Positions 4,536 to 25,348 of a DNA stretch of 26,340 nucleotides are shown in pieces; position 1 is the first letter of the stretch; every line of letters begins with the position of its first letter. Below the pieces are notes generated by a model, which did not search any database, was not told where the DNA came from, and saw nothing but the letters and a program-made list of their open reading frames with translations. Position numbers and translations under genes: made by a program. The stretch comes from a virus (taxonomy: Duplodnaviria; Caudoviricetes). The stretch spans positions 1 through 26,340 of the IMG/VR virus record IMGVR_UViG_3300025639_000017. The stretch is one strand, 5' to 3'.

Positions 4536-4552
4536 TATAAGCACTGCTTATA
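4536..4552. promoter_or_regulatory. 17-bp palindrome copy 1 (TATAAGCACTGCTTATA), upstream of the fibre module
   Basis: Perfect 8-bp inverted repeat with a 1-nt centre. On the minus strand it is followed by an extended -10-like TGaTATACT. Repeated elsewhere in the window. Confidence 0.7.
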
Positions 4553-7500
4553 ATTGAGAGTAGATCGGGGTGAGGCGTTTTGCCAGGTCACCCATGTCTC
4601 CAGTGAAGAACGTTTCAAGGGTTCCTGCCGTTGGCCCCAGCGCAGTGACCACTCCGCTACGCCCGTAGTCCCCTGCATCTGACATCATTTTGATGATGGA
4701 CATTGGGCCTAAAATACCGGTACGATCGATTAGCTCAAAAAGATAGCCTAGGATGCCTTCATCGTCTCCGCCACCATTTTTGCCCAAAGCTCCTTTTATC
4801 AGTTCCCTGGTCTGTAGGGCCAGCGCAGCCAATGGCATAAGTACGCCGAACATAAGTCCGACTGACATCATTGCACCAATCTTATCGCCCTCTTTCCAAC
4901 GCGACTTCGACTCACGTAGAACACCACCGACGACAATCTGACCGAATGAATAGAAGAAACTTTTCAGTTGCCAAATCAGCATAAAACGAGGGTCCGATGC
5001 CCACGTAGGTCTGTGTGCTGCATTAGGTCGGATAATGGCTTCATCTACGAAATTAAGGATCGCCTCTTGGACCGCCTCACCCTCGGGGGTTGTTAGATCT
5101 AACGTGTCAGTCTCAACATCGTAACCTTTGAACACTGTTTCAGGCGTAAGGCCCAGTTCTTCCAGATACCGCAGGCTGCGCTTGTCACCCTCGGCGGCTT
5201 TTTTCGCATGGTGCGATATGAAATCACGGCCCATATTGGCTGAAATTACTCGAGTCATTCGAGTCCACTGTTCCAAACCAATTGCTCTGAAATACCGGTC
5301 CGACCATTTACGTGCGCCTGGATCAATAAACTCTGAGTTGTACGCTTGGTGTAAAGCCTCTTGTACTGCCTCACGGGACGCCGCGCCTACCCGCTCTGCG
5401 AACAGGATTTGCTCATCGCGCGTTTGTTTGCTCATGTACTCGCGCCACGTACCCATTGCGCTTTTGAAACCGTGCATATCTTTTGAGCGAATAATCGGGT
5501 TACCGATGTCGGTGAACGATGCAATTACGGAGTAAAGTAGGGTCGTAGAGAACTGGAGCGCCGCCATGTAGCTTTGGTACTTGTTCCATTTGGGGTCGAT
5601 GTGTGCACCCAAACGCCCTAGGTAGCCCATCACTATTTTTTGCGCCTGCGCTTTCTGCTTAGGCGACATCTGTTGGATTAAGCGCTCAGCCTGGTCTTTA
5701 ACAACATTGTATTCGGCGTGCTTAGTCGCCTGTTTCAGGTACAGTTGAACAGCAACCAAAGGGTCCTGATAAAAATCCTGATCCTGTAGCGACTTCGCAT
5801 CCATATTCTTTAACACACGTTGCATCTTGGCGTTGAACTGAGGGCCAAATACCTCGTGGTTAGGGATGTCCTCGATAAATGCACCATCGTTTTCGAGCAT
5901 GGCTCTCATTATTGTTTGCGATTCGCGCTTGTTGAGCCCCGCCTTTTTCAACTCAGCCAAAAATGCATCAGGGTCCGCGTGTATCGCCTGGATATTGTAT
6001 ACGACGGGGAAGTAGTTCTGTATTTTCCCGATTTTAGGTATACGTTTTTTGAGGTACTCACTGTGGAACCGATCAAAGAAATTGGCCAGTTGCTGCCGCA
6101 TCTTAGGGTCTATTGATTGGTCAATAGTCACACCTGCCTGCATTTCTTCCAGGACTTTGTGCGCGTGCTTCGGGTCACCCCCCAACACTTCTGCGAACTG
6201 TGCGTTCCACTTATCCAGCGCGTGATGCTGCTTATTAAGCATGTCCCCTTCGCCGCGCGTACGGCTTTGAGTGCGGTGGTAAAACAGGTTAGCGAACGCC
6301 GGTCCGTGCTTACCCAATCGAGTACGTGCATATTGGTCAGCCGATAAGGTCACTTTCAACATGCCGGACACGATGTCGCTACTCCACATTTCACCCATCA
6401 ACTCCGTAAGCCGCTGTACGGCTTTTGAATCAATGAGGTCAGCGATGGCCAACGCGATTGGGTCCCTCTCGAAGTCACCGAAATTCGGGACCACAATATT
6501 TGTGTCCTTGTTTGATGAGGTGCTGCGGCGTTTCGTAGCTTGTACTTTTTTACGGGGCTTAGGCTCACTGTTTCCGAACGTTGCATCAGTGTCGTCTAGC
6601 ATGACGAAATTGACCTCGCCCTGATTGCGGCCCACTACCTCGTCCATAAACTCGTCGAATGTCTCGTTCAACGTAGCCCTTTCCTTCATATCACGCAAAG
6701 CGCCCCGCGCCTTTGGAGACACGCCGCTCTCTAATTCGCGCCGCACAAACTGACGGGAACGGTTCCAAATGGTCGCAAGCTGACCCGCTACCTTTTTGAA
6801 AAAGGCCTCAGTGAAGTGCCCAGGCTTTTCAGTTTGTTTTTTGGCCCATGCGCTTGTTTGGTCTGCGAACCACTCTTCAAAGCCTTTTTTGTCGTTCGTG
6901 TATGTATAGCTACCCGCTTTTTTGCTCAACCGCTCTTTGCTGAATTGCTTCCAAAGCCGCTCCTGCTGAGCTTTAGGGAGCGCATCCCACATGTCCCACA
7001 TCACAATATGGCCCATCTCGTGGCCCAATATGAAAATTTGTTCCGCCTGTCGGTAGTCGTTGTCCGCCGTTCTATTAAGAACAATGTATTTAGCGCCACC
7101 ATGGCTGACTGCCGCAGCTTTTGCGCCTTTGTTAAGCACCGTGTCCGCAGAGGCGCGCACTTCCGTTGGGATAGACGTGCCATCGATCTCGTCCCTAAAC
7201 ACGATGTGTATATCACCGCCGATATTCAGGGTCTTTTTTATGGCATCAATATAGTTTTGGAACAGGTCAGGTACGCTGCCCCACGCCGTAGTGCCGTTTT
7301 TCGACGTGCGCTGTTGCTGCTCAGCACCCGTACTGTTCGCCTCGGCGTCCTTTGCTGCCTGAGCTTCTGCCCGCTGTCTTTTACTGTCATTGATGGTCTT
7401 TTTAGGGTTGGACTTTGGCTTCGGCTTGTTCTTTGGGCGTCGGTCGCTGTAGATTATCGGGTTGCCGTTCTCGTCTACTTGGCGCTGTTTATTATCCGCC

Positions 7501-10049
7501 TGCCTGGTGTTGTTTTCCGACATTTCCTGTGTTGTTGAAGTAGTTTCCAGCTTCTCCTCAACACTTGTTTTTATGCGGTTGACGCTATCGACAGCGGGAT
7601 CAAGTAGCTCGTATAAATCGCTAAGCCTTTGTTTCGCGTAGTCTAGTTTTTGGGTACTGGCCTCAGACTGATTTGGGCCTGCCTGCTGGGCCTCAATCTC
7701 GAGGTCCGCCACCTTTTGTTGCTGCTTATCTATCCTAGTTTCTAGCTCACTTAGGTTCGACTCTGCTTTTATCAGATCACGTTCGTTCATGCCTGCAACG
7801 TCTGCCATGCCTGACTTGTTGGACTTGCTCTTTTGAACCCACGAGGCTTTTAAATTGCCCCATGTATAGGCGTTTCTACCCTTCCTCGACACGACTGTGC
7901 TGTCGGGCATGATGTTCTCGTCGAACACATAACCGAGATTGGCCATCTCTTGGGCCATGCGTTGAAAACCAGTTAATAAGAGTTGAGGATAATCAGCCTC
8001 GAAATCGACGGACTTCTCTTTGTTGTTAATCCGCATTCCTGCGTGTGCCATTTCCGTTGGGGATATCCTAGTGCGCTTGCCATCGGGTGCTGCAACTTGC
8101 ACTGTCCTATCAACACCGCCCTGTTTAGTGCCAGCCCGGGCTTTTTTAACACCCTCGTTTACAAGCTCGCTGACGTCTTCCCTGTCGTCCAACATCGAGG
8201 TCTCTTCAATGAACTCAAGGCCATCTTTTGTTACGACTTCGTACTGTTTGCCTGGGTTCTCTTCTTTGAGCTTGGCAACACGGTTATGGATCGATTTGCG
8301 GCCAGGTTTATAACCCTCGTTATTCTTACCCTTCCCGACGAGTGTTTCTTCCAGCCCGGCTTCGCGTAGGTCGTTGGCCCCTGCCTCTGCCTCGTTCATG
8401 GCTATCGTTTGCTCTGCCTGCAATTCTTCATCACGGGTGAGCGGGATAGTATTCGCGGTTTGGTGTTTGTTCAGTTCCTCACGCACAAGCTCTTGGAAAC
8501 GGTTCTGGCCCATCTTATCGGCACGAAGATTTAGTTCCTGTATGGCAGCTGCCGCTGATTCTTGTGTAGCTGGATCAGCCGCTAACAGCCCATCGCTTTC
8601 CACCTCTTGCACCATCGCGAGTAGGTCCACGATTGGAGCTTCCGCCATGTTCTCTTGGCTTAGGTCAGAGGCATCAAATGCCATGCCTGCTGATGTCGTA
8701 CTCCCGCTATCGAAAGATACCCCACCACTTAGGTCAGAGGGCATTGGGTTATTGTCTAATGCTGGTGTTGATGGTGCTGATGGCAGCTGTGGTAAGTCGG
8801 TGCCTTGTGGCGTTTGCCCATCGGGCGGTTGTTGCGATCTACGTTCGGCGAGGATATCACGCGTTTCTTGTACGGTATGTTTTGCCTGCTGTGCGACGTT
8901 GCCTACAGCCTTGCCCCCCATACCCAGTGCTCTGCCTGACATAAGACCTGCAAACGCAGCTTCTGACAACCGCATTGTTGCACTTTTTAAATCGTAGTTT
9001 GGGTCCTGGGCAAAACGCTGTGCGACCATAAGGCCTTCCTGCCCAGTCTCGGCGATGAGCTCGGAGATCCCCTGTTTCGCACCTGCTTTGACAACACCAC
9101 CTGTTAAGTTGCGTAGGTAGGCTCCTTTTTTGTAGTGGTCTGCCCCTGCTAGTTTCTTCACAGACTTGATGAATCTAGCCTCCGGTAATACGTCCATCAC
9201 CGCGAAAGGTACACCCATAGCAAACGCTAACTGGGCTGCGTCTTGCTCACCTACACCCGACTCCATTGATTCTTGGAATGAGGACGATACGCCTTGGATG
9301 TAACCCGAAGCGTGCGCACCCATCGATGCGCCCTTTGCCCTAGCCATGGCTTTTGATTTAGCCATCCGTTTTAGGGCATCTTGTGCCACTTCAGCCTGTA
9401 GTTTGGTCCCACGGCCTTTTCCATGCTCTACTATGGCGTCTCTTACGACACGCTTTAGCTGGTTCTTCGCGACAAGTCCGGTGACTGCTAATGGTGCGCT
9501 AGCCACACCGCCGGTTGTAAAACCACCCGCAACAAAACCACCCGCAGCCCATGCTAGCGAGTCGAGTGCAGACGGTAAGGCTTGGTTAACTGTGTAATTG
9601 GTGAGCTCACTAAAGTCCCCAAGTAGGTCTAGAGTGGATTTCGACCCATCGCCTTTATAAGCACTTGCAAGGTCACCTACGAAATCCTCAAACTTGACTA
9701 GGTGCTGTGTTACTCTACCAGCCCGCTCATCGATACTTTGAGCCCTGTCAAATAACTCGGCCCCCTCTTCGTCGTCTCCGACTGCAAAGTTAAATGCAGA
9801 TCGTGCGGTGAGGTATGAGGACTCCAACCCCATGAAACCCGCTTTTCTGCCAGCCGCGCCTGCGGAAAGGTTTGTGGGCGTGATCCCTGTGCCTTGGTCA
9901 ATATCCGTTTGTAATGAGCTGATCGACCCCGCCAATGATTCCCGTTCAGTGTACAGCTGTTTTAGCTGGTCAGCTTTCTTAGCCTCACCCTGGGATATTT
10001 GCCCACGGAGTTGCTCCCTTAGTGCTTTAAGCTCAGTTAGTGAGGCCAT
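4548..10049 (-). CDS. Large internal virion/DNA ejection protein with a zincin-like metallopeptidase motif (1833 aa)
   Basis: Largest ORF and last of the internal-virion cluster. It has Gly/Ala-rich hydrophobic N-terminal segments, coiled coils, HEMGH followed by EEWFAD, and a helical C-terminal region with hydrophobic segments. Confidence 0.8.
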   Translation of the reverse strand: MASLTELKALREQLRGQISQGEAKKADQLKQLYTERESLAGSISSLQTDIDQGTGITPTNLSAGAAGRKAGFMGLESSYLTARSAFNFAVGDDEEGAELFDRAQSIDERAGRVTQHLVKFEDFVGDLASAYKGDGSKSTLDLLGDFSELTNYTVNQALPSALDSLAWAAGGFVAGGFTTGGVASAPLAVTGLVAKNQLKRVVRDAIVEHGKGRGTKLQAEVAQDALKRMAKSKAMARAKGASMGAHASGYIQGVSSSFQESMESGVGEQDAAQLAFAMGVPFAVMDVLPEARFIKSVKKLAGADHYKKGAYLRNLTGGVVKAGAKQGISELIAETGQEGLMVAQRFAQDPNYDLKSATMRLSEAAFAGLMSGRALGMGGKAVGNVAQQAKHTVQETRDILAERRSQQPPDGQTPQGTDLPQLPSAPSTPALDNNPMPSDLSGGVSFDSGSTTSAGMAFDASDLSQENMAEAPIVDLLAMVQEVESDGLLAADPATQESAAAAIQELNLRADKMGQNRFQELVREELNKHQTANTIPLTRDEELQAEQTIAMNEAEAGANDLREAGLEETLVGKGKNNEGYKPGRKSIHNRVAKLKEENPGKQYEVVTKDGLEFIEETSMLDDREDVSELVNEGVKKARAGTKQGGVDRTVQVAAPDGKRTRISPTEMAHAGMRINNKEKSVDFEADYPQLLLTGFQRMAQEMANLGYVFDENIMPDSTVVSRKGRNAYTWGNLKASWVQKSKSNKSGMADVAGMNERDLIKAESNLSELETRIDKQQQKVADLEIEAQQAGPNQSEASTQKLDYAKQRLSDLYELLDPAVDSVNRIKTSVEEKLETTSTTQEMSENNTRQADNKQRQVDENGNPIIYSDRRPKNKPKPKSNPKKTINDSKRQRAEAQAAKDAEANSTGAEQQQRTSKNGTTAWGSVPDLFQNYIDAIKKTLNIGGDIHIVFRDEIDGTSIPTEVRASADTVLNKGAKAAAVSHGGAKYIVLNRTADNDYRQAEQIFILGHEMGHIVMWDMWDALPKAQQERLWKQFSKERLSKKAGSYTYTNDKKGFEEWFADQTSAWAKKQTEKPGHFTEAFFKKVAGQLATIWNRSRQFVRRELESGVSPKARGALRDMKERATLNETFDEFMDEVVGRNQGEVNFVMLDDTDATFGNSEPKPRKKVQATKRRSTSSNKDTNIVVPNFGDFERDPIALAIADLIDSKAVQRLTELMGEMWSSDIVSGMLKVTLSADQYARTRLGKHGPAFANLFYHRTQSRTRGEGDMLNKQHHALDKWNAQFAEVLGGDPKHAHKVLEEMQAGVTIDQSIDPKMRQQLANFFDRFHSEYLKKRIPKIGKIQNYFPVVYNIQAIHADPDAFLAELKKAGLNKRESQTIMRAMLENDGAFIEDIPNHEVFGPQFNAKMQRVLKNMDAKSLQDQDFYQDPLVAVQLYLKQATKHAEYNVVKDQAERLIQQMSPKQKAQAQKIVMGYLGRLGAHIDPKWNKYQSYMAALQFSTTLLYSVIASFTDIGNPIIRSKDMHGFKSAMGTWREYMSKQTRDEQILFAERVGAASREAVQEALHQAYNSEFIDPGARKWSDRYFRAIGLEQWTRMTRVISANMGRDFISHHAKKAAEGDKRSLRYLEELGLTPETVFKGYDVETDTLDLTTPEGEAVQEAILNFVDEAIIRPNAAHRPTWASDPRFMLIWQLKSFFYSFGQIVVGGVLRESKSRWKEGDKIGAMMSVGLMFGVLMPLAALALQTRELIKGALGKNGGGDDEGILGYLFELIDRTGILGPMSIIKMMSDAGDYGRSGVVTALGPTAGTLETFFTGDMGDLAKRLTPIYSQL

Positions 10050-10051
10050 GT

Positions 10052-12331
10052 TTATTGGTTCCCGGACTCGATTCCCTTGATCATAGCGTCAACGCTCGCG
10101 AACCTCTTTTTCTGATTCTCAAGTTTAGATGTGACTATGCCAGAACTGACTTCACTCGGGGTTTTTAACAAGTCCTCTAGGACCTCACGCACCGCAACCG
10201 AGCTAATTTCACTTATATTGAAGTCCCGATCAGCGTGCTGTTCGCCCATGTCGTCCCACAACTGGATGTTTCCGGTATTTGGGTCTAGGGAGAAGCTCTT
10301 TGTTACGCGATCCAATGGGTTATGCACGTCATCTTCGTCTGACCCTTTGGCCCAATCGTACGGCTGGAAGAGGCCGTATATTGACAGCTCATTTAACAAG
10401 TATTGGTTCAGGTTCTGCGACAGGAGATTTTGCTCCAATTGTGGCAGCGGGTTATCTTCTGTGGCCACGGACAACTGTTGGGTTAGACTCGTAATGGAAT
10501 CCTCGAGGTCTAGGCCGTCCTCGCCCTCGTTGTTGTGCATCGCAACCAATGCGCTTTGTACGTCCTGTGGTCTACCATCAGTAGGGTCATTAAATCTCCA
10601 CTGCTGCTTACCGTTGATATCCAGTGATACGACTGACCCATCGGCCAACGTTTTGATCGTAGGCTTGTCAGCGGCAGCTTGGTTTTTTAGCTCTTGAACG
10701 GCTAGGTCGCCTTGCTCGATGATCTGTTGTTTCATAAGACCAACAGAATCAGAGGAAAATACCCCCAAATCGAGCACGCGCTGAATAGACTCGCGGTCAA
10801 TGAAACCAAACGCTTCTAGTCGTTTAAGGTTAAATAGGGTTTTTGCATCAATCCCTTTTTGGGATGGCCTCAGATTATCTGCGATCTGTTGCGCTTGTTC
10901 TACCTTCTCGCCCGCAGTTTTAGGCATAGCCGCTTTGATCTGTGCTTCGACAGCGGCCTCTTTTGGCGTGCCAACGAAGGACATGGGCATCATCTCATTG
11001 GCGGTGGCGTTGTTTGCGGCTTTTTGCTGCCCTTCGGTCAGGTCAGTTGCTACCCTTCGCTCACCGTTTTTCAGCTGGGTCAAAGCGTCTATGGCTGTTT
11101 TATGCCTCGCCTGCTCCACTTTCTGCTCGTCAGTCAGCACCGTGTTTCTTTTCCCTCCTCTCCTTACAGTGGGAGGACGGATTTTTTTCATGTCTGCTTT
11201 ATGTTCGTTTATGGCGCGGTCAATTTGGGTGTCCGAAATTTGACCTAGGAACTCGGGGTCATAGGCGTCGACATCCTCAATGGTGTTAATGCTGGCCAAG
11301 GCTGTATTGATCACTGTATTACTACGACCGGGGGACCTTCCTTTTACGGGCTGTAGGTCTGGCGCAGCACCGTCGACTGTACCCAACGGTGCCGGGGTTA
11401 CCTGTACTGTCGATTGGTTAGTAGGGGCCTGGGTAGTGCCTGATTGCTCCAACTCGCCACCGAGTTCTATGGCGGTGCTTACCGTTTGGTTGTTAAGTAA
11501 ACCTGGGGGCTGGCCCGTAATCTGGCTGATGGTATCGGCCATACTTTGCGCAGCCGCCGGCATGGGCAAACCTTTTGCGTTAAAATAGGCGGCGTCGATT
11601 TGACTTTTAATGATGCCAAACGACTGGAGGTTTCCAGCGGATATTGGGTCACCCTGCTGCGCTGTTCTGTACTTGGACAGGTATACCTCTTTCTCAGGGT
11701 TTTTTGGGTCATACAACTGTATTACGTGCCTGCCGTCCTCAAGTGGGACGATACTCTTAACGAAGTAATCCTCACCTTCTGACCCTGAAAAAAGAGACTG
11801 TCGGATACCATCTTGGTTGAGCTGGTCGACGTAACGGGCTGTTAGCTCTGGGGTACTGAAAATCTGCTCTGCGCTAATTGGTTCATTACCCACAACAAAA
11901 TTCTCAAAATAGCTCGGGGCTGAATTTTCAATCCTCGATGCCTGTAGGGCCAGTGCATTGGTGTCATTTTCAATTTTTTGGCCTGCGGTTTGCGCACTGG
12001 CAAATTCAGTTTGTGTCTTAGTGAAATTAGTGTCCGCTTCGGTGCCTGCTAATGTAGCGGCTCGTTGTGGCTGAGCCTCCTTGTACACTTTCGCAGTGTG
12101 GTCCGAGGTCACCTTCGCCTGACGTTTGCTTTCGCCTAGGTTAGCGTAGTTGTATGCGAGATTCGTAGCATGTTCATTCCGGCGTTGCTCATGATCCACC
12201 CCGAACTGGCGTTTCTGCTCAGCGAATTGGCCCAGCTGTAACGCAAGGTTTGCCTCAAACTGCTTGTTCTGCAATTCCGCTTGTTGGCGACCCAAGACTG
12301 CGCCTAAAATCGGGTTATTGTATCCGGCCAT
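10052..12331 (-). CDS. Internal virion (ejection) protein (759 aa)
   Basis: Gln/Ala-rich coiled-coil N-terminus; position in the podovirus ejection-protein cluster; tight gene coupling. Confidence 0.7.
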   Translation of the reverse strand: MAGYNNPILGAVLGRQQAELQNKQFEANLALQLGQFAEQKRQFGVDHEQRRNEHATNLAYNYANLGESKRQAKVTSDHTAKVYKEAQPQRAATLAGTEADTNFTKTQTEFASAQTAGQKIENDTNALALQASRIENSAPSYFENFVVGNEPISAEQIFSTPELTARYVDQLNQDGIRQSLFSGSEGEDYFVKSIVPLEDGRHVIQLYDPKNPEKEVYLSKYRTAQQGDPISAGNLQSFGIIKSQIDAAYFNAKGLPMPAAAQSMADTISQITGQPPGLLNNQTVSTAIELGGELEQSGTTQAPTNQSTVQVTPAPLGTVDGAAPDLQPVKGRSPGRSNTVINTALASINTIEDVDAYDPEFLGQISDTQIDRAINEHKADMKKIRPPTVRRGGKRNTVLTDEQKVEQARHKTAIDALTQLKNGERRVATDLTEGQQKAANNATANEMMPMSFVGTPKEAAVEAQIKAAMPKTAGEKVEQAQQIADNLRPSQKGIDAKTLFNLKRLEAFGFIDRESIQRVLDLGVFSSDSVGLMKQQIIEQGDLAVQELKNQAAADKPTIKTLADGSVVSLDINGKQQWRFNDPTDGRPQDVQSALVAMHNNEGEDGLDLEDSITSLTQQLSVATEDNPLPQLEQNLLSQNLNQYLLNELSIYGLFQPYDWAKGSDEDDVHNPLDRVTKSFSLDPNTGNIQLWDDMGEQHADRDFNISEISSVAVREVLEDLLKTPSEVSSGIVTSKLENQKKRFASVDAMIKGIESGNQ

Positions 12332-12332
12332 T

Positions 12333-13112
12333 TTACATCCCCATCCCGAAAATTGTTCCTATTGCATTCATGTTGGCAGCGTGTGCGCTCGCCCTATCCC
12401 GTTGGTATGCGGCTTCTCTTGATGCATCCATACCAGCGGCAGACCCTAGCCCATCCATCGCCACTTTTAGCTGTTCTTTGCCTATGCCCATAAGGGATGC
12501 TTTGAGACCTAAGTTCCTGTCGCGCTGATCGATGGCGGAGTTATTAACTGCGCCCGCATACGATGCCGAATCGCCCAACGAACTCATGCGTTTTGACGCG
12601 GCCAGTTGGGCAGGCGTCATAGTTGCGCCGTAACGACTCATTGTGCGTTGTTGTATATCCGACGACACTTGCTGACCTAAAACTTGAGACTTCTTGGCTG
12701 AGTCGATTATTGCTGTGCTGTCCGTGTCGGCCAACATGCCTTCTTCCATCTCGCCGTACGTCTCTAGGTAGTTCTTGAGCTCATCACGGGTGATGCTGGC
12801 TAATGTGTCGCCTGCGCTTGGTCCTGACTCAACTGCGGACGCCACTTGTTGGCCGCCGCCGCTGTTGCCACCGCTGCTGTTGCCACCATTGCGCGCATTG
12901 GCCGCGTCAATTTGGGGTTTGCGGGCAGCACTCACGCGCTCTGCCTCGGACATAGCGCTCCAAGATGAGTCTCCGCTCATTGCGGCTTCGTGCGAACGTA
13001 GACTGTATTCGTCCTTTGCAGCGTCGTTCATGCCATATATTGTTTGGTTTACGAAACGGTCTTTAGGACTTTTAGACGTTTTTCCGAGTTCGTACTCTTT
13101 CACTTGCGCCAT
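12333..13112 (-). CDS. Internal virion/pilot-like protein (259 aa)
   Basis: Ala/Gly/Ser/Met-rich, helical, ends in a Gly-rich hydrophobic tail (NAIGTIFGMGM); cluster position. Confidence 0.65.
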   Translation of the reverse strand: MAQVKEYELGKTSKSPKDRFVNQTIYGMNDAAKDEYSLRSHEAAMSGDSSWSAMSEAERVSAARKPQIDAANARNGGNSSGGNSGGGQQVASAVESGPSAGDTLASITRDELKNYLETYGEMEEGMLADTDSTAIIDSAKKSQVLGQQVSSDIQQRTMSRYGATMTPAQLAASKRMSSLGDSASYAGAVNNSAIDQRDRNLGLKASLMGIGKEQLKVAMDGLGSAAGMDASREAAYQRDRASAHAANMNAIGTIFGMGM

Positions 13113-13122
13113 GGTATCTGCC

Positions 13123-13713
13123 TTATGATAATTTCTTTAACTGGGCGATCAGTTCGTCCGTTTTTGAAGTGTCGAATGGGTTGGCTTTTCTATACATGCC
13201 TGCTCCTAGGTCCATCCCGAACGCCGTATTGGTGTCCTGCATACTGCTCGATGCTTGCGCCTTGGCTATGAGTTCCTGGTTGTCAGCTCTAGCTGCGGTG
13301 GATAGACCTGCCATGGCAGACGTTCTGCCACCCTGCCCCACGCGCAATGCGCCTAGCTGGGCCTTATCTTTGACGTCCTGCGCCGTACTCGTGGCTGATA
13401 TTAATGCACCCCCCAGAGCGTTGGTTTGCGCAACACCCTGTTTGGATTGGCCCATCATAGAGCGACCGCTGCCAAAGCCCCCGCTAGAATTAGAAGTACC
13501 CAAGCCTGCACCTTGACTGCCAGAAAAGGCTTGAGCTGAGTCAGCATTAGCTCGACCACCAAGGACGCCAGAAACATCGCGCCCAGACTCCTTAACAAAA
13601 CCCGCTTCAAGGGGGCGGTAAAGGTCTTTATGGCGGTCAGATATCGTGAGGGCGTTCTCGACTGTTGCTTTTTCATATTCACTTGGTGGTGCTTTTTTTG
13701 CTGAATTACCCAT
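13123..13713 (-). CDS. Internal virion protein (196 aa)
   Basis: MG-S-K-APP-type N-terminus and Gly/Ala/Ser-rich body typical of the first small ejection protein; overlaps the upstream gene. Confidence 0.65.
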   Translation of the reverse strand: MGNSAKKAPPSEYEKATVENALTISDRHKDLYRPLEAGFVKESGRDVSGVLGGRANADSAQAFSGSQGAGLGTSNSSGGFGSGRSMMGQSKQGVAQTNALGGALISATSTAQDVKDKAQLGALRVGQGGRTSAMAGLSTAARADNQELIAKAQASSSMQDTNTAFGMDLGAGMYRKANPFDTSKTDELIAQLKKLS

Positions 13714-14140
13714 TATTCTTTACCTGACATCGATAAGTTACGCAGACAGGTGAGAAACCTAGTTCCTTAACCCGTCTACCCCAACCCAAACGGGCTGAGT
13801 TAAATTCAATACGTTCGACGCCGATTTTGGCAGCTAGGTCATACCCTGCGGCAACAGCCTCGGCGAACACGTTCATTCCCTGGCGTAACCAAAGGTGGTC
13901 GATCATTAGCGTGGGGGCCCGCTCGTACCCTGAATCATATTGGCTGAGTATTGCAAAACCATAACGATCTGCTCCGTCCTCAACCCAATACAAATGGATC
14001 TCACCTGCCATCAATTGGTGATAGATGTCAGCAGGCAAAAACTCCGCCCCCACTTTACGGATGATCTCCATCATCCCGCCGTGGAAGTATTCATAATTTT
14101 TACGGATACTGGCTTTTGTTGCAGGGACGAGTTCTACCAT
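13706..14140 (-). CDS. GNAT-like (acetyltransferase-fold) protein (144 aa)
   Basis: LMIDHLW...G.ERIEFNSARLGWGRRVKELGF pattern; in podoviruses such genes commonly precede the ejection proteins. Confidence 0.6.
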   Translation of the reverse strand: MVELVPATKASIRKNYEYFHGGMMEIIRKVGAEFLPADIYHQLMAGEIHLYWVEDGADRYGFAILSQYDSGYERAPTLMIDHLWLRQGMNVFAEAVAAGYDLAAKIGVERIEFNSARLGWGRRVKELGFSPVCVTYRCQVKNNG

Positions 14141-14766
14141 TACAGACCTCCGTACCGGACCGTCCGTCGGGTTGGACCTCGCCGACCATCAGCCCTGCTT
14201 TTTGCGTCGCGGATATGAGCCTCAAACTCCATTTCGTGTTTCATTGCACGTTGTGGGTTGGCCCATGGCATGTCTTGTGAGTTGAATAAATTAGCCAAAG
14301 CACCCGCCATAATGCCGTCGACATAGTCTTCGACAAAATCTGTTTGGACGCTTGTGGCGGTCAGCGTAGGTTTTAGCGACACAGACATGCTGACAGCATC
14401 GTCCGACTTTATCGGTACGGGCACCAAATGCAGTGTCTTACTGCTCGCTCGTATATAACTTGTCGGTGTAGACTGTTCAGTCCGCCACATTGGGTTGGCG
14501 TGGGTTGCCCCCTGCTCCGTGTCGGGTTCCAGTTCTTTTTGGGCTACGGTTACAGATAGGATTTCGACAACACTCGTCTTACTAGGAAGGTCGAAGTCAT
14601 ACTCATACTCGCCCGCATAGGTGTCGATTGGATCGAGGTTTGCGCGATAGGCACCACTGCGTTTACAGAAACTACGCACCGCGTCTTTAATAGCCTTTTC
14701 CACTACAAACTCAGGACAGCCTGCTATGTGGTAAGGGAGAAGGCCAACCATATCTTTGTAGTTCAT
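14140..14766 (-). CDS. Head-tail adaptor-like/neck protein 2 (208 aa)
   Basis: GCPEFVVEKAIKDAVRSFC N-terminus, LHLVPVP, and a C-terminal GALANL...PWANPQRA; position after the first adaptor. Confidence 0.65.
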   Translation of the reverse strand: MNYKDMVGLLPYHIAGCPEFVVEKAIKDAVRSFCKRSGAYRANLDPIDTYAGEYEYDFDLPSKTSVVEILSVTVAQKELEPDTEQGATHANPMWRTEQSTPTSYIRASSKTLHLVPVPIKSDDAVSMSVSLKPTLTATSVQTDFVEDYVDGIMAGALANLFNSQDMPWANPQRAMKHEMEFEAHIRDAKSRADGRRGPTRRTVRYGGL

Positions 14767-14775
14767 AAGCTACTC

Positions 14776-15435
14776 CTAAACTATTTGAGTTGCCTCGGTC
14801 TGTACATTAGGACTCGAAAAACCGTCCGCTTGCGTCTTCATGCCTAGACTCGTTGTGAATAGCTGGTAGTGCTGACCGCTTCGTTGTGCATTACCCGCAT
14901 GGTCGCTGTCCTTGCCATAGGCGCGGAACAACACATAATCGAGTAAACCGTTTGCATATACATCGGGAATGCTGATGTCGCCTCCCGAGGTTACAGGTGT
15001 AGGTGTTGCCGCGTAGATAACTTCAAGGTAGCCACCGCCAGTATTAGGCGGGTACACATAGTAGTTGGTGGGGTCCAGGTCATCGAACATGTAATGCTTC
15101 ACGTTCGCAGTGGCCGTTTCGCTATGCCAATCCGGCAGCTGGGTGTCAAGCACCTCACGATCAATAATGCGCACTGCTCGCGCGCCTCCGCCTGATGCAC
15201 TCATATTCCGAACGATACGCAACAGGCCTAAACCTGATGCAGGGATCGACTGCTTGGTGCCACTCGACAGTGTTAGTGTCTCGTTTTTCGCGCCAACAGA
15301 TGGTTTGAACAGGCAAACTTCACGCTGACCATCATTAATCCAATCGAGCAGTTCAGCGGTCGGCCAACGTACACCCGTCGTGTCTTGGATCAGTACCTGT
15401 GCTCGGTTAATAATACTATCGACTGGTACAGTCAT
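14776..15435 (-). CDS. Head-tail adaptor protein (DUF6682-like, 219 aa)
   Basis: IINRAQVLIQD...RW...ELLDWINDGQRE, YYVYPP and LLDYVLFRAYGKDSD motifs of podoviral adaptor proteins. Confidence 0.75.
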   Translation of the reverse strand: MTVPVDSIINRAQVLIQDTTGVRWPTAELLDWINDGQREVCLFKPSVGAKNETLTLSSGTKQSIPASGLGLLRIVRNMSASGGGARAVRIIDREVLDTQLPDWHSETATANVKHYMFDDLDPTNYYVYPPNTGGGYLEVIYAATPTPVTSGGDISIPDVYANGLLDYVLFRAYGKDSDHAGNAQRSGQHYQLFTTSLGMKTQADGFSSPNVQTEATQIV

Positions 15436-15815
15436 TACATTTCCCCAATTACAGCCCAGGCTGTGTCGCGTTGCTTAGAAGTGATGTCGTAGCCCAGGAT
15501 CTTTTCGATACTGCGGACCCTAGGTTCACCATTTTTTGAGAAGGCTTTATCGTCGCCCTTGTTCATCAGTTGCTCAATTGCAGCCGCGATTTCCATGGCG
15601 CGGTCCTCTTCTGAGACCTCATCCATTTCAACTGCGAGTGGCGCAGGTTCAGCAACTGATTTGTTAATCTGTGGTTGTTTGCCCACTGGGTATGCACCAG
15701 CAGCAATACATTCGTCCACTATAAGTGGGGGGACTTCTTGCGCTACGCCAGCCTCAAACCAAACGGATTGTCCGCTTAGAGAAGCAATGTGCAGTGCCTT
15801 ATCAGAAATCAACAT
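15435..15815 (-). CDS. Conserved hypothetical virion-associated protein (126 aa)
   Basis: RBS GGAG at 15824-15827; C-terminal F-K-GEP...LG..IT...RD.AW helical motif; immediately downstream of the capsid gene. Confidence 0.75.
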   Translation of the reverse strand: MLISDKALHIASLSGQSVWFEAGVAQEVPPLIVDECIAAGAYPVGKQPQINKSVAEPAPLAVEMDEVSEEDRAMEIAAAIEQLMNKGDDKAFSKNGEPRVRSIEKILGYDITSKQRDTAWAVIGEM

Positions 15816-15827
15816 AATAAAAACTCC

Positions 15828-15855
15828 AAAAAGCCCCCGACGCTAGGCCGGGGGA
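15828..15855 (-). terminator. Rho-independent terminator after the major capsid gene
   Basis: Minus strand CCCCCGGC-CTAGC-GTCGGGGG-CTTTTT just after the capsid stop codon. Confidence 0.75.
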
Positions 15856-15870
15856 AGAGGCCCTATTGGG

Positions 15871-16980
15871 TTACAGCGCGGTGTCTAATGCGATCACACC
15901 AAAGTCTTGGGTGTCGCCAGTTACCATGCTGGTGTACTTAGGCTTACGGAAGCCTAAAATCTTACCTACGGAGATACCATGCTGGTTACCGTAGTCATAG
16001 GTTTCTTCAACCCAGTCTGCATCGTTGATGTCGGCTAATGCCAATGCCTGTGCACCACAGAACAAAGCGCGTTGACCGTCTACTGTGCCAGTAGCACCAA
16101 ACTTAGAACCAGACGCTTCACCAGAGGTGTCGTATACATGGCGGAATTCGTGAACCATCACGCCGTCTACCATTACGCTTGAAGTACCGGAGAACAAACC
16201 GTTGCCTGAACCTCGAACACCTGCGTTACGAACGTTAGCCAAGAAGTCAGAATCTAACTTCAGATCAGCCATACCTTGTGGGGTGACGAACATGTGGAAC
16301 ATCTCTTCACCACCTTTACCACGCACACCACGGATGTAGTGGTCTTTGGCATAAGCTTTAAGGTTCACAATAGTCTTGTAACCCATGATGTCAGAAGCAG
16401 TTAGGTTGCCTGTAGATACAGTACCGTCAGCTTTAGCGATCAAATGACGCTTGCTGGTTGGCGCAGTTACGTCACCGGCGTATTCCATGTCACCCAAGTT
16501 TTGGCCAGTTGCGTTTACAGCACGAGTACCACCGTTGTTCTTCTTGGTATATGCCAAGCCAGACAAGGTTAAAAATGCTACTTGGTCCATACGGTCAGCG
16601 ATCCAGTACGCCAAGGCGTCCTTAGAGGCTTCACGGAAATTAACGATGGACTTCTGGTCAGCCAAACGGCCAGCCAAACGGTTTGCGTTACGCAATTGGT
16701 CAATGCGAACAATGATGTCAGAGCTAGATAGCGCTTCTTCATTGCCTTCCAATGTGTAGTCGCCTACAACACCGTCGCCAGACAAATCGGCAAGTAGAGT
16801 TAAAACAGCGCGTGCGCCCTTCTCACTCTTGGTTAAGTCAGTGATACGCTGAACCATGGCGTTAGAGCCAGTGCCTGCGAATTGGTTGATGAAGGAAGCA
16901 TTTCGAGCTGCTTTCCAAAAATCACGGGACCATACGGTCTTTTGCTCTGAAGTCAGAGCGGCAAAATTAGTTAATGCCAT
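15871..16980 (-). CDS. Major capsid protein, N4-gp56/DUF4043 family (369 aa)
   Basis: MALTNFAALT...WSRDFW, LTKSEKGARAVLTLLADL.GDG..GD.TLEGNEE and C-terminal DFGVIALDTA; RBS GAGGT; strongly biased codon usage. Confidence 0.93.
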   Translation of the reverse strand: MALTNFAALTSEQKTVWSRDFWKAARNASFINQFAGTGSNAMVQRITDLTKSEKGARAVLTLLADLSGDGVVGDYTLEGNEEALSSSDIIVRIDQLRNANRLAGRLADQKSIVNFREASKDALAYWIADRMDQVAFLTLSGLAYTKKNNGGTRAVNATGQNLGDMEYAGDVTAPTSKRHLIAKADGTVSTGNLTASDIMGYKTIVNLKAYAKDHYIRGVRGKGGEEMFHMFVTPQGMADLKLDSDFLANVRNAGVRGSGNGLFSGTSSVMVDGVMVHEFRHVYDTSGEASGSKFGATGTVDGQRALFCGAQALALADINDADWVEETYDYGNQHGISVGKILGFRKPKYTSMVTGDTQDFGVIALDTAL

Positions 16981-17002
16981 GAGTATTTACCTCTTAAAAT
17001 AA

Positions 17003-17019
17003 TATAAGTACTGCTTATA
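17003..17019. promoter_or_regulatory. 17-bp palindrome copy 2 (TATAAGTACTGCTTATA)
   Basis: One mismatch to copy 1; 22 nt upstream of the capsid ATG, just before the RBS. Confidence 0.7.
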
Positions 17020-17020
17020 A

Positions 17021-17209
17021 AAGTCGCCATTCATCAAGCAGGGGCGACAACCACTGCATGTGTTGGACGTGTCGTGTCCGAACGAAATAGCGACCTTTTA
17101 AAGAGGGACGAACTCATGGCCTTATTGAGCTAGGCGAGGGCTACCACGTATCGTGTGGGGGTCGAAAACTTAGGCTTGGACAGTTGTCGTACTGTAAGAC
17201 GAGCCTTTG
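17021..17209 (-). ncRNA. Putative structured RNA/capsid mRNA leader
   Basis: No credible ORF; at least six stems can be paired by eye; recurrent ACGA(C/U)A hairpin loops and UCGU segments; bracketed by palindrome copies 2 and 3. Confidence 0.6.
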
Positions 17210-17215
17210 CGTATA

Positions 17216-17232
17216 TATTAGCACAGCTTATA
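17216..17232. promoter_or_regulatory. 17-bp palindrome copy 3 (TATTAGCACAGCTTATA)
   Basis: Two mismatches to copy 1. On the minus strand it contains TGcTAATAT (extended -10-like), which would place a start near 17209. Confidence 0.6.
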
Positions 17233-17255: not shown

Positions 17256-17513
17256 CTAGAACAGGTCATCAATCACCGCTGGCGTGTACTCACCGAGGTA
17301 CGCACTCTCGATGTTGTACTCCATAAACTCCTTCGCTTCTCCATACCCCATACCCCGTTCTGCGAGGCATTCGAGAATCTTTTGGGCCGAGTAGGCAACC
17401 CTAGGGTTGCCACTCATGCACAAATTAACGCCAATAATGGCCTCATCCAAACCATCGAAAAACACCAGTTCGGGATGGTCCTCGACGTAGGCAGCCGTAA
17501 TTGCCTCGCGCAT
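17256..17513 (-). CDS. Conserved hypothetical phage protein (85 aa)
   Basis: DGLDEAIIG...VAY...GM...EA.EF.EYNI..AYLGEYTP pattern, recalled as common in aquatic phages; its start overlaps the scaffold stop codon. Confidence 0.8.
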   Translation of the reverse strand: MREAITAAYVEDHPELVFFDGLDEAIIGVNLCMSGNPRVAYSAQKILECLAERGMGYGEAKEFMEYNIESAYLGEYTPAVIDDLF

Positions 17514-18526
17514 TAGCCGAAATCACCGCGTAAACGCTTCATTTGGGCTTCAGACAACTTGTCAAAGTCCGTATCAGTCATCATGGTGATGTCGATCGTT
17601 TCTTCAGTTCGTGTTGTTGCACTCTCGCCTGCTAATTTCGCTGGCTGTTTATTAGCGGCTTCCAGTTTCTGCTCAACGTTCGTTGTACGTTTCTTGGCTG
17701 TGGGCTTTTTCGCAACAGTTTTTGGTTGGAGCAATTCCGGCGCATTGGATGCCAAGGTTAAACGAACCGCTTTACGCAGTGCGTCTGCCGATGGCATGCC
17801 TGCATCAGCGTACAACCCCATCAGTTCGTTGGCTTCCTGGATCATCTCCTGATCAGCCTGGTCACTGGATGTGTCCAACACTGGGTACGCAGCGACCATG
17901 TCCGCCACAGCGGTGTCTAAATCCAGCTGCTGTTTGGTGACATTAGTCGTGTTACTGATGTCATTTCGCAGCTCACTGGCCATAGATTCACGTTCAGCTG
18001 TACGAATCTCTTTGCGCACCGCTTTTGCCTTGTCCGTCTCACCGTCCAAGACAGCTTCCATATACTCAGCTTCCTTAGAATCGAAATCGAACTCTGGTTT
18101 TTCTGGTTCCTTGGGCTTAGCGGCCTCTTCCAATTTCGCTAAACGGTCCTCCAGTTGGCGGCGTCGAGCAATCTCTTCATCCATACGGGACTTCGGCACC
18201 ATGTGAGGCTTTTCCTCGGCCTTCTCAGCCTCTACAGAAGCCTCCTCAGCGTCTTCTTCGGCGGCCTCTTCTACGACTTCCTCTTCCTCGAGTTCGTCGC
18301 TCACAGCGGCTTCTGCGTCGCCCTCAGTGGTTTCCTCGGCAACTTCCTCAGTGGTTTCCTCGGCAACTTCCTCAGTGGTTTCCTCAGCGGCTTCCTCAAC
18401 CACAGCCTCTGGATCGTCACCGCGATCAAGGCCCTCCAGGTCGTCTTGTTCGATTGCATCAGCACCTGCAAATTGGTCGTAGTTTTCGTCGTGGTCTAAA
18501 TTTTCTGCTGCATTGGATTTAGGCAT
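17513..18526 (-). CDS. Capsid scaffolding protein (337 aa)
   Basis: Highly acidic N-terminus, VPKSRMDE coiled coil, C-terminal MKRLRGDF; located between portal and capsid; RBS GGAGG. Confidence 0.8.
   Translation of the reverse strand: MPKSNAAENLDHDENYDQFAGADAIEQDDLEGLDRGDDPEAVVEEAAEETTEEVAEETTEEVAEETTEGDAEAAVSDELEEEEVVEEAAEEDAEEASVEAEKAEEKPHMVPKSRMDEEIARRRQLEDRLAKLEEAAKPKEPEKPEFDFDSKEAEYMEAVLDGETDKAKAVRKEIRTAERESMASELRNDISNTTNVTKQQLDLDTAVADMVAAYPVLDTSSDQADQEMIQEANELMGLYADAGMPSADALRKAVRLTLASNAPELLQPKTVAKKPTAKKRTTNVEQKLEAANKQPAKLAGESATTRTEETIDITMMTDTDFDKLSEAQMKRLRGDFG
18322..18393 (-). repeat. 24-bp in-frame tandem repeat x3 (encodes the EVAEETTE repeat)
   Basis: cctcagtggtttcctcggcaactt at 18322 and 18346, with a variant copy at 18370. 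Confidence 0.9.
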
Positions 18527-22978: not shown

Positions 22979-22995
22979 TATAAGCACTGCTTATA
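22979..22995. promoter_or_regulatory. 17-bp palindrome copy 4 (TATAAGCACTGCTTATA)
   Basis: Identical to copy 1; fills most of the 29-bp gap between the HNH gene and terS. Confidence 0.7.
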
Positions 22996-23424: not shown

Positions 23425-23441
23425 TATTAGCTGTGCTTATA
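23425..23441. promoter_or_regulatory. 17-bp palindrome copy 5 (TATTAGCTGTGCTTATA)
   Basis: Variant at the head of the late region; overlaps a minus-strand TGaTACTAT extended -10-like element. Confidence 0.6.
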
Positions 23442-24336: not shown

Positions 24337-24525
24337 ATGTACGACATCGTACCAAAAGGGCTAGGGCCTGATCCCCTAGAGCAGCTGCTTCAAGCTGAAC
24401 GTCGCGCCGAGTATCGCTGGGACGTCGAACTTGAGGCAGATTATCCAACACAAACCCGCGAGCAGTTCGTTCGCAACAACGCCCATCGTCGGGCACAACA
24501 TACATTGGAGAAGCATCATGACTAA
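24337..24525 (+). CDS. Hypothetical protein (62 aa)
   Basis: RBS AAGGAGG at 24322-24328, ATG 24337 (MYDIVPKGLGPDPLEQLL...). Confidence 0.7.
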   Translation: MYDIVPKGLGPDPLEQLLQAERRAEYRWDVELEADYPTQTREQFVRNNAHRRAQHTLEKHHD

Positions 24526-25207
24526 AGTACTTACTAAGGCACACGCTGCCGACATCAACACCACCGACGCACCTTGGACAGAGAGTGCAGAGACTTCGGA
24601 CACGTTTACCCTGACCGAGGCCCTTCGCACTTATCTGCAAGAGCAGGTGGATTTCATTGCCGATCGCGCCGTGTCGCAACTCGGTATCATTGCCAACTGG
24701 GCCAACATCGCCGCGTTCCAGACGCCCGCGTCCTACGACCAGATGTTTGGTAACGACTATGGCCTCGCCATGGACAGTAACCAGAAGCTGCTGAAGTATT
24801 GTGCGCAGTCCGTGGCCGGTGACCCCGAGTCGCTGGTACAGGTTCGCGCCACGGGCAGCGTGTACGGTACACAGGACGCCAGCGGCGCGCAAAGCACGGT
24901 GCACAGCGACACGGATCAAAACAAGATCCAGGTCAACGAGATGGCGTTCGAGGCCATTACCAACGCCTCAGAGCGTTACAACAAGGCCGTCGCTGACATC
25001 GTGTTGCTCAACACGAGCTTCGGCATGGAACCCACGACGTCGCGCGAAGAACGCTACGAGTTGTGGATTGCCAAGGAGCGCGACATGAAGCGTCGTAAGC
25101 AGGAGAACCAAGCCCGTAGTGAGGCGAAGTTCGCGGCCAACGCCCAACGGGACGACGTCGTGGTGCAACTGCACAAGGTGGCACAGACCACCGCGCACTT
25201 GATCTAA
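24518..25207 (+). CDS. Hypothetical early protein (229 aa)
   Basis: RBS GGAG, ATG 24518 (MTKVLTKAHAAD...); GC3-rich codon usage; basic helical C-terminus; followed by a terminator. Confidence 0.85.
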   Translation: MTKVLTKAHAADINTTDAPWTESAETSDTFTLTEALRTYLQEQVDFIADRAVSQLGIIANWANIAAFQTPASYDQMFGNDYGLAMDSNQKLLKYCAQSVAGDPESLVQVRATGSVYGTQDASGAQSTVHSDTDQNKIQVNEMAFEAITNASERYNKAVADIVLLNTSFGMEPTTSREERYELWIAKERDMKRRKQENQARSEAKFAANAQRDDVVVQLHKVAQTTAHLI

Positions 25208-25228
25208 CCAACGCACAAGGTGCACAGT

Positions 25229-25255
25229 AAGAGGGTCCTTCGGGGCCCTTTTTTT
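25229..25255 (+). terminator. Rho-independent terminator
   Basis: AGGGTCC-TTCG-GGGCCCT followed by a T tract; C(UUCG)G tetraloop. Confidence 0.92.
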
Positions 25256-25348
25256 ATGCCTCGGTCACACTGACCAACGCCCACTGACCCCCGCGCGCCG
25301 GTCGCTGGCCAATGGGCACTGGATGTCGCGTTTTGAACAGTTTTCTTA

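Follow-up and report, generated by a model that had tools for sequence, protein, structure and literature searches.

What is the purpose of the 275 nt that precede the major capsid gene of a tailed phage? The question arises from a 26,340-nt stretch of phage DNA (the window), whose minus strand carries, in this order, the large terminase, a P22-like portal, a 337-aa ORF, an 85-aa ORF, a gap of 275 nt, the capsid gene and an intrinsic terminator-like hairpin (15834-15854). The capsid gene (15871-16980) encodes a protein of 369 aa of PF13252 / phrog_334, named as the N4-gp56 family in the sources, and a Shine-Dalgarno-like sequence lies before it at 16989-16995. The gap is likely to be the 5' untranslated leader of the major-capsid mRNA. 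The 337-aa ORF (17513-18526), which follows the portal, is acidic and is called scaffold-like here by position and composition only; no family match was found for the scaffold-like ORFs, and PHROG scans give them no name. Within it, 12-nt repeats at 18231-18410 code for an acidic low-complexity stretch.

The original prediction saw in this gap a structured RNA bracketed by two palindromes, with three ACGA hairpins (17195-17180, 17158-17144 and 17079-17065), three complementary UCGU tetramers and a stem AGGCU/AGCCU. All of these letters are found at the places named on the minus strand. Hairpins with four Watson-Crick pairs and a loop of 6-8 nt beginning with ACGA occur eight times in the window, both strands included, and three of the eight are in this stretch of 189 nt. 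As a nested fold the stretch has no unusual stability (z -0.66), as would be the case were much of its pairing in pseudoknots.

The leader is predicted to fold into up to six small pseudoknots placed back to back. In each, a hairpin loop would pair with an adjacent single strand to give two stems with short loops, which is the H-type arrangement. They are of two types, A and B, and their order from the 5' end is A1, A2, B1, B2, A3, B3. In A1 (17202-17180), (U)CGU pairs with the loop ACG(A) and the second stem is ACAGU/ACUGU. In A2 (17165-17144), UCG pairs with the loop CGA, the fourth pair being A.A, and the second stem is CCAC/GUGG. B1 (17142-17119) has an AGC/GCU hairpin whose loop bases GCC pair with GGC past an A-rich linker, and in B2 (17115-17091) a GAG/CUC hairpin offers CGUCC to GGUCG, with one U.U, past UUUAAAA. 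A3 (17085-17065) pairs UCGU with the loop ACGA over the second stem GGAC/GUCC. Lastly B3 (17057-17023) is a predicted 10-bp pseudoknot made of GCAG/CUGC and GUCGCC/GGCGAC. The stem AGGCU/AGCCU (17206-17202 with 17176-17172) encloses A1 as a predicted 5'-terminal stem, and may form in place of the complete A1 pseudoknot. Each unit has only 6-10 pairs. The linkers between units are A/U-rich, and B3 ends 43 nt 5' of the AUG, after which A/U-rich sequence runs on towards the ribosome site.

This fold departs from the earlier one in several places. The tetramer at 17111-17108, which had been taken for a free partner, lies in the B2 strand whose partner is GGUCG. The partner of the second loop, UCGA at 17165-17162, had been overlooked, as had the predicted pseudoknots B1, B2 and B3. 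A search for pseudoknots that uses no motif places A1, A3 and B3 above threshold (3 against 0.67, with a maximum of 2 in 60 shuffles), B3 having the top score of the window units. A2, B1 and B2 fall under the threshold and rest on the family pattern; B1 and B2 are the weakest units of the array.

The family pattern comes from searches with the capsid protein, which gave 339 sequences including the window, of which 311 had usable leaders; 193 of these were distinct, 125 remained after clustering and 122 have at least 44% capsid identity. The test for type-A units was anchored only on the stem closing a CGA-N-A loop, and the partner was then sought upstream. Across the 122 non-redundant leaders a CG was found 9-14 nt 5' of the loop CG in 175 of 193 anchored hairpins. 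The base after this upstream CG and the base before the loop CG form a Watson-Crick pair in 136 of the 175, a count reached by none of 10000 shuffles, which give 71.5 +/- 5.3; the pairs are U-A (86), C-G (37), G-C (8) and A-U (5). A first pass had given 107 Watson-Crick pairs out of 155. The leaders share ancestry, however, and a tree-aware test of pairs goes in the right direction and is not significant, at low power (3.9 against 1.1, p 0.375; 2.9 against 0.0, p 0.25). The type-A loops are 6-11 nt long, and their first base varies with the upstream partner; the CG/CG core and the loop ACGAYAC are nearly invariant across the family. By eye, the first unit of three leaders (L046, L047 and L050) shows a bulged form, with the partner UCAGU upstream of the ACGA hairpin.

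Type-B pairing, between a hairpin loop and bases past an A-rich linker, occurs in 61 of 163 cases, against 26.5 in swapped controls with a maximum of 40 in 1000 swaps. Pseudoknots found without any motif number 2.57 per leader as against 0.69 in shuffled sequence, and are more frequent than in the shuffles in 107 of the 122 leaders and less frequent in three. The strict type-A units are also well localised: over 121 loci, the final 250 nt of the sense strand hold 124 of them, while every other bin on either strand holds 0-3. The number, order and type of units are freely interchangeable between phages.

The window and its nearest relatives add a second line of evidence. In 13 close relatives the pairs of the units are kept in 99.8% of 611 cells. 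Five compensatory pairs were found, all of them within the hairpin stems of A1 and A2, and all four pairs of the A2 stem CCAC/GUGG are compensatory. The outer stem AGGCU/AGCCU is paired in 100% of the 13 sequences, with two compensatory pairs. The loop-pairing stems are invariant and therefore add no support from these relatives; B1 and B3 are likewise invariant, and the hairpin of A3 varies on one side only. In one relative (L001) U17202 changes with the outer stem and not with the loop, implying that A1 has a loop helix of three pairs or an alternative fold. Taken with the covariation in the 122 leaders, the compensatory changes in hairpins 1 and 2 and in AGGCU/AGCCU bear out the proposal of an RNA under structural selection. 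The same does not hold for CGACC/GGUCG, proposed to close a multibranch domain: only 67.7% of its cells are paired, and two of its five pairs are broken in 11 and 10 of the 13.

Pairing further downstream was also considered. In 12 of the 13 close relatives 17120-17113 can pair over 8 bp with 16983-16976, across the capsid start codon; this would compete with B1 and B2, and might serve as a switch particular to the clade. Over the whole family, pairing with the start region hardly exceeds that in swapped controls (16.9 against 16.3 +/- 0.17). Extending the fold to the start codon (z -3.16) brings in a long stem that covers the ribosome site and AUG; this was rejected as the core mechanism, because its Shine-Dalgarno half is lost in 10 of the 13 relatives and because of the marginal family-wide pairing.

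Where transcription might begin is suggested by the palindromes. A 17-bp palindrome is present in five copies (4536-4552, 17003-17019, 17216-17232, 22979-22995 and 23425-23441), giving ten strand matches where 1.06 are expected by chance. Every copy is just 5' of a minus-strand gene and overlaps a -10-like box, and the palindromes are likely to be an operator or promoter of late genes. The copy at 17216-17232 is conserved in 13 relatives and does overlap the extended -10-like sequence ascribed to it (TG at 17223-17222, hexamer at 17220-17215). Transcription is thus predicted to start near 17209-17207, a few bases 5' of the first unit. Scanning for sigma-70 sites gave no complete promoter at the leader, and the -35 box is poor in the window's clade. 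In a count made without a shuffle control, 33 of 63 leaders show a -10-like hexamer ending 7-12 nt upstream of their first strict unit, so that the first knot is likely to form only a few bases from the 5' end. The second copy, 17003-17019, lies between the array and the ribosome site and is present in three of 82 leaders, all in the window's clade. It may be a second promoter or an operator; as a promoter, it may yield capsid mRNA without the array.

A scan of the window for terminators found no terminator-like site after the array. A marine RNA library contains a contig of a 97% relative, 1467 nt long with 46 differences, which spans 17264-15798 and hence leader, gene and terminator. It is weakly consistent with a leader-plus-capsid transcript, since the contig reveals neither the strand nor the ends nor the level of an RNA, and the library may contain DNA. 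The RNA run X2 contributes a small share, consisting of capsid-gene pieces only, and 6341-15678 is without contigs in either run, an absence to which no evidential weight is given. Both runs have contigs at 24409-25223, around a 238-aa ORF and its neighbours, with a terminator-like hairpin near 25230-25259.

These results bear on how the tetramers and loops are used. It had been suggested that the UCGU segments kiss the ACGA loops, within or between molecules of a discrete RNA that acts in head assembly or packaging like the pRNA of phi29, a transcript in its own right whose copies join into a ring on the prohead. The tetramers of A1 and A3 are identical, so that in the window each could pair with the other's loop; that of A1 sits in an internal loop which a covarying stem closes; and the second palindrome could bound a separate RNA. 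However, in 30 leaders whose loops differ from one another the tetramer matches the loop of its own hairpin in 52 cases, another loop in seven and neither in nine (31, four and seven in the first pass), which points to local H-type pseudoknots and not to kissing across units. The spacing from tetramer to hairpin, which varies, is held within 5-10 nt, the multibranch stem is not conserved, the number of units differs between phages, and the RNA runs on into the capsid gene in the contig, with no terminator-like site in between. Thus the pairing of UCGU with ACGA stands and its topology does not, and we regard a discrete kissing RNA as very unlikely. A part as a capsid leader is possible, and a ring subunit is disfavoured by the varying number and order of units and by the joining of leader and capsid gene in one contig. 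The leader shares with pRNA only the idea of short complementary loops; its pairing is local, and its RNA appears joined to the capsid gene. Exchange of strands between two molecules with identical units may still take place, being compatible with the sequence.

The repeats could instead act as DNA, in the form of TCGT-N-ACGA operators or single-stranded hairpins. TCGT and ACGA are indeed inverted repeats in DNA, and the reverse complement of the leaders scores as many generic pseudoknots (2.31 per leader). This explanation is hardly credible, given the variable 5 to 10 nt spacer, the covariation of the second stems and the position of the array just after a promoter-like box. At the pairs, moreover, G.U exceeds A.C by 16 to 5, which points to the sense strand.

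On the basis of these observations we hypothesise that the array is a serial barrier to RNase E that shields the capsid mRNA, so that more capsid protein is made; we put the probability of this at about 0.45. Transcription would start a few bases 5' of the first unit, and the units would fold one after another as they are transcribed. The chain of pseudoknots would then present serial obstacles to RNase E, presumably the enzyme concerned, as it scans from the 5' end. The capsid message would stay intact and translatable, and the yield of the most abundant protein of the virion would rise. The named hosts of the relatives are Proteobacteria, which have RNase E. H-type pseudoknots of 8, 11 and 15 bp are described as hindering RNase E scanning in proportion to their size, while plain hairpins and kissing loops do not hinder it (PMC9943677). 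A chain of small knots with short spacers, free in number and type, fits a serial barrier, and such interchangeability suits a role based on shape. Like the obstacle knots of that work, the leader units are predicted to be small coaxial H-type pseudoknots in a 5' UTR, and the type-B units have a pair count similar to the 8-bp BWYV knot; those knots were engineered, single and placed in E. coli reporters (PMC9943677), whereas the leader array is natural and tandem. Against the barrier, the window units have fewer pairs than the 11-bp knot, itself rated a modest obstacle (PMC9943677).

The distribution of the units among phages provides further evidence. A scan of viral contigs for the motif, with a pattern derived from leaders of the PF13252 family, gave at least 120 loci, and 107 of those 120 records were searched for the capsid gene. 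Among the matches listed, 25 of the 107 have a PF13252 gene, and in 22 it is no more than 1.5 kb downstream on the same strand: directly in seven and about 1-1.4 kb away in 15. Four of the seven direct loci are contigs already in the capsid-first set. Again among the matches listed, a full second stem is present at 14 of the 22 capsid-linked loci, compared with eight of the 85 others (p 4e-7). A scan with a two-unit pattern gave five loci, all apparently chance matches in coding sequence. The tie of the array to the PF13252 family is partly built in, as the scan pattern came from that family, and for the same reason other families may carry arrays that the scan missed.

Seven motif-first loci were studied in full. 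Each has the unit, an acidic ORF of 272-386 aa, 28-85 nt and then the capsid gene, and in three the portal gene precedes the unit. Position and composition suggest that the ORFs between unit and capsid gene are scaffold-like. These scaffold-first loci, from distant phages with the PF13252 capsid, together with those where the capsid gene follows directly, show that the unit heads the capsid-coding stretch whichever of the two genes comes first. The units keep to the 250 nt upstream of the capsid gene or of a scaffold-like gene directly preceding it. At one scaffold-first locus (L393) a tRNA gene (927-998) lies between portal and scaffold-like gene, and the first unit directly follows the tRNA CCA, where processing would create a new 5' end; this single case favours the barrier. 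At four others (L345, L353, L355 and L392) the last unit ends a few bases 5' of the Shine-Dalgarno sequence, which suits an operator and speaks against the barrier. In addition, a passive barrier would need neither a near-invariant CG/CG core and ACGAYAC loop nor an association with a single capsid family.

The operator in question would be a set of repeated pseudoknot sites for unassembled capsid or scaffold subunits, whose cooperative binding tunes translation of the head operon in the manner of gp32. By analogy with gene 32 this is possible, and we rate it as less probable than the barrier. The conserved loop sequence in several copies fits it, as do the units found before PF13252 capsid operons in either gene order in the 22 records, and so does the start-codon pairing of the window's clade that competes with B1 and B2. 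There is a precedent in gene 32 of T4 and T2, where an H-type leader pseudoknot is described tens of bases before the AUG, followed by an A/U-rich stretch (PMC3014915). The capsid leader resembles it in having pseudoknot B3 followed by an A/U-rich run to the ribosome site; the gene 32 operator is followed by a gene for a nucleic-acid-binding protein that binds it (PMC3014915), and the gene downstream of the leader encodes a capsid protein, a candidate binder under this reading. Two phages with the same capsid family, Bcep22 and Eline, lack the unit and have instead a CsrA-like gene just upstream. On the other hand, the last strict A unit is a median of 80 nt from the AUG (range 35-201), pairing with the start region across the family hardly rises above its controls, and the tie to the capsid family, besides being partly built into the scan, is explained by shared descent too. 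Nor was any constant small regulator gene found beside the array across relatives. The 85-aa ORF (17256-17513, phrog_13182), between the scaffold-like gene and the promoter-like box, belongs to a large viral family without names and has a confident predicted fold; in relatives its place is taken by other small ORFs or none, making it an inconstant neighbour. As the array's regulator it was rejected: it has only unnamed viral look-alikes and is absent beside most arrays.

A wider version of the operator would make the array a multivalent platform for free PF13252 capsid or scaffold subunits, which senses unassembled protein, sets translation of the head genes and may collect newly made subunits at the mRNA that encodes them, so initiating procapsid assembly. 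We think this unlikely; we know of no such role for an RNA platform in tailed DNA phages. Still less probable, in our judgement, is that the array enhances translation by loading 30S subunits via bS1. Pseudoknots are named as high-affinity targets of bS1 (PMC10931766), and the A/U-rich linkers and the A/U-rich stretch before the ribosome site would suit it, but such loading leaves unexplained why the first unit lies by the putative 5' end, as much as 200 nt from the AUG. Enhancement through bS1 is compatible with a barrier to RNase E, and the two are not exclusive.

Cultured phages carry related units. KPP25 (a Pseudomonas phage), AP1, phiA008 and KLEP18-1 have variant units with C-G at the covarying pair, two of them in the leader of KPP25; the last unit of AP1 and those of KLEP18-1 were read by eye. 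Inspection of the leaders of P13771, Bcep22 and Eline showed no clear unit. In Bcep22 (L085:1163-1460) and Eline (L086:628-1500), the two with the CsrA-like gene, an AGGA hairpin can be seen by eye whose 3' arm can pair over 8 bp with the spacer before the AUG. The phage group is large, with 4750 capsid proteins at E up to 1e-60.

Is this a known RNA? With E values up to 1 allowed, the covariance models of Rfam 15 do not match the leader of the window, of 14 relatives or of 20 motif-first loci, in keeping with the original prediction, which recognised no named family; the models, which include STAXI, mini-ykkC, ykkC-III and GP20-a/b, do not score pseudoknot pairs. Literature searches, with most subscription papers outside their scope, found no description of a capsid-leader pseudoknot array. 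The upstream pseudoknot domain of Tobamovirus has several small pseudoknots back to back which raise expression; the capsid leader is similar in arrangement, but is in the 5' leader of a DNA phage gene and not in the 3' UTR of a plant RNA virus. The Guanidine-II riboswitch has the loop letters ACGR, with guanidine carboxylase or SugE-like genes downstream. In this riboswitch (mini-ykkC) the conserved four-base loops of two hairpins kiss each other, upstream of guanidine genes (PMC5558903); the capsid leader also has repeated hairpins with ACGA-containing loops, but these are 6-11 nt long, pair with their own upstream tetramer and stand before head genes.

STAXI (RF01728) is described as two or three tandem copies of a pseudoknot, in Enterobacteriales, with UUCG tetraloops and near DNA-handling genes (Ssb, topoisomerase, antirestriction, integrase) (PMC2864571). 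The leader units are similarly repeated, but they adjoin scaffold-like and capsid genes, have the longer loops and give no STAXI match at E up to 1. Two candidate structured RNAs of Fremin et al. (2023), DNAVirus_3698 and DNAVirus_865, lie within 25 nt of capsid_maj_N4 genes (PMC10690425). The first is 85 nt long, comes from marine and freshwater sources with four Gammaproteobacteria hosts, and precedes 37 such genes; the second has a strong coding signal in their table, and the main text describes no pseudoknot for either (PMC10690425). Compared by its table description only, DNAVirus_3698 may be part of the family described here. Leader pseudoknots and tandem pseudoknots are therefore already known kinds, from gene 32 and STAXI as described in those reports, and the capsid-leader family is absent from Rfam.

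The leader thus represents a modular family of RNAs, absent from the catalogue, in a large group of tailed phages that includes the cultured Pseudomonas phage KPP25. To our knowledge, the amount of capsid protein in phages and its ratio to scaffold are rarely explained at the RNA level. If the array is an operator, it would provide a feedback loop linking head assembly and translation. If it is a barrier, it would be a natural example of pseudoknots hindering RNase E in series, and would offer a compact element for making bacterial mRNA more stable.
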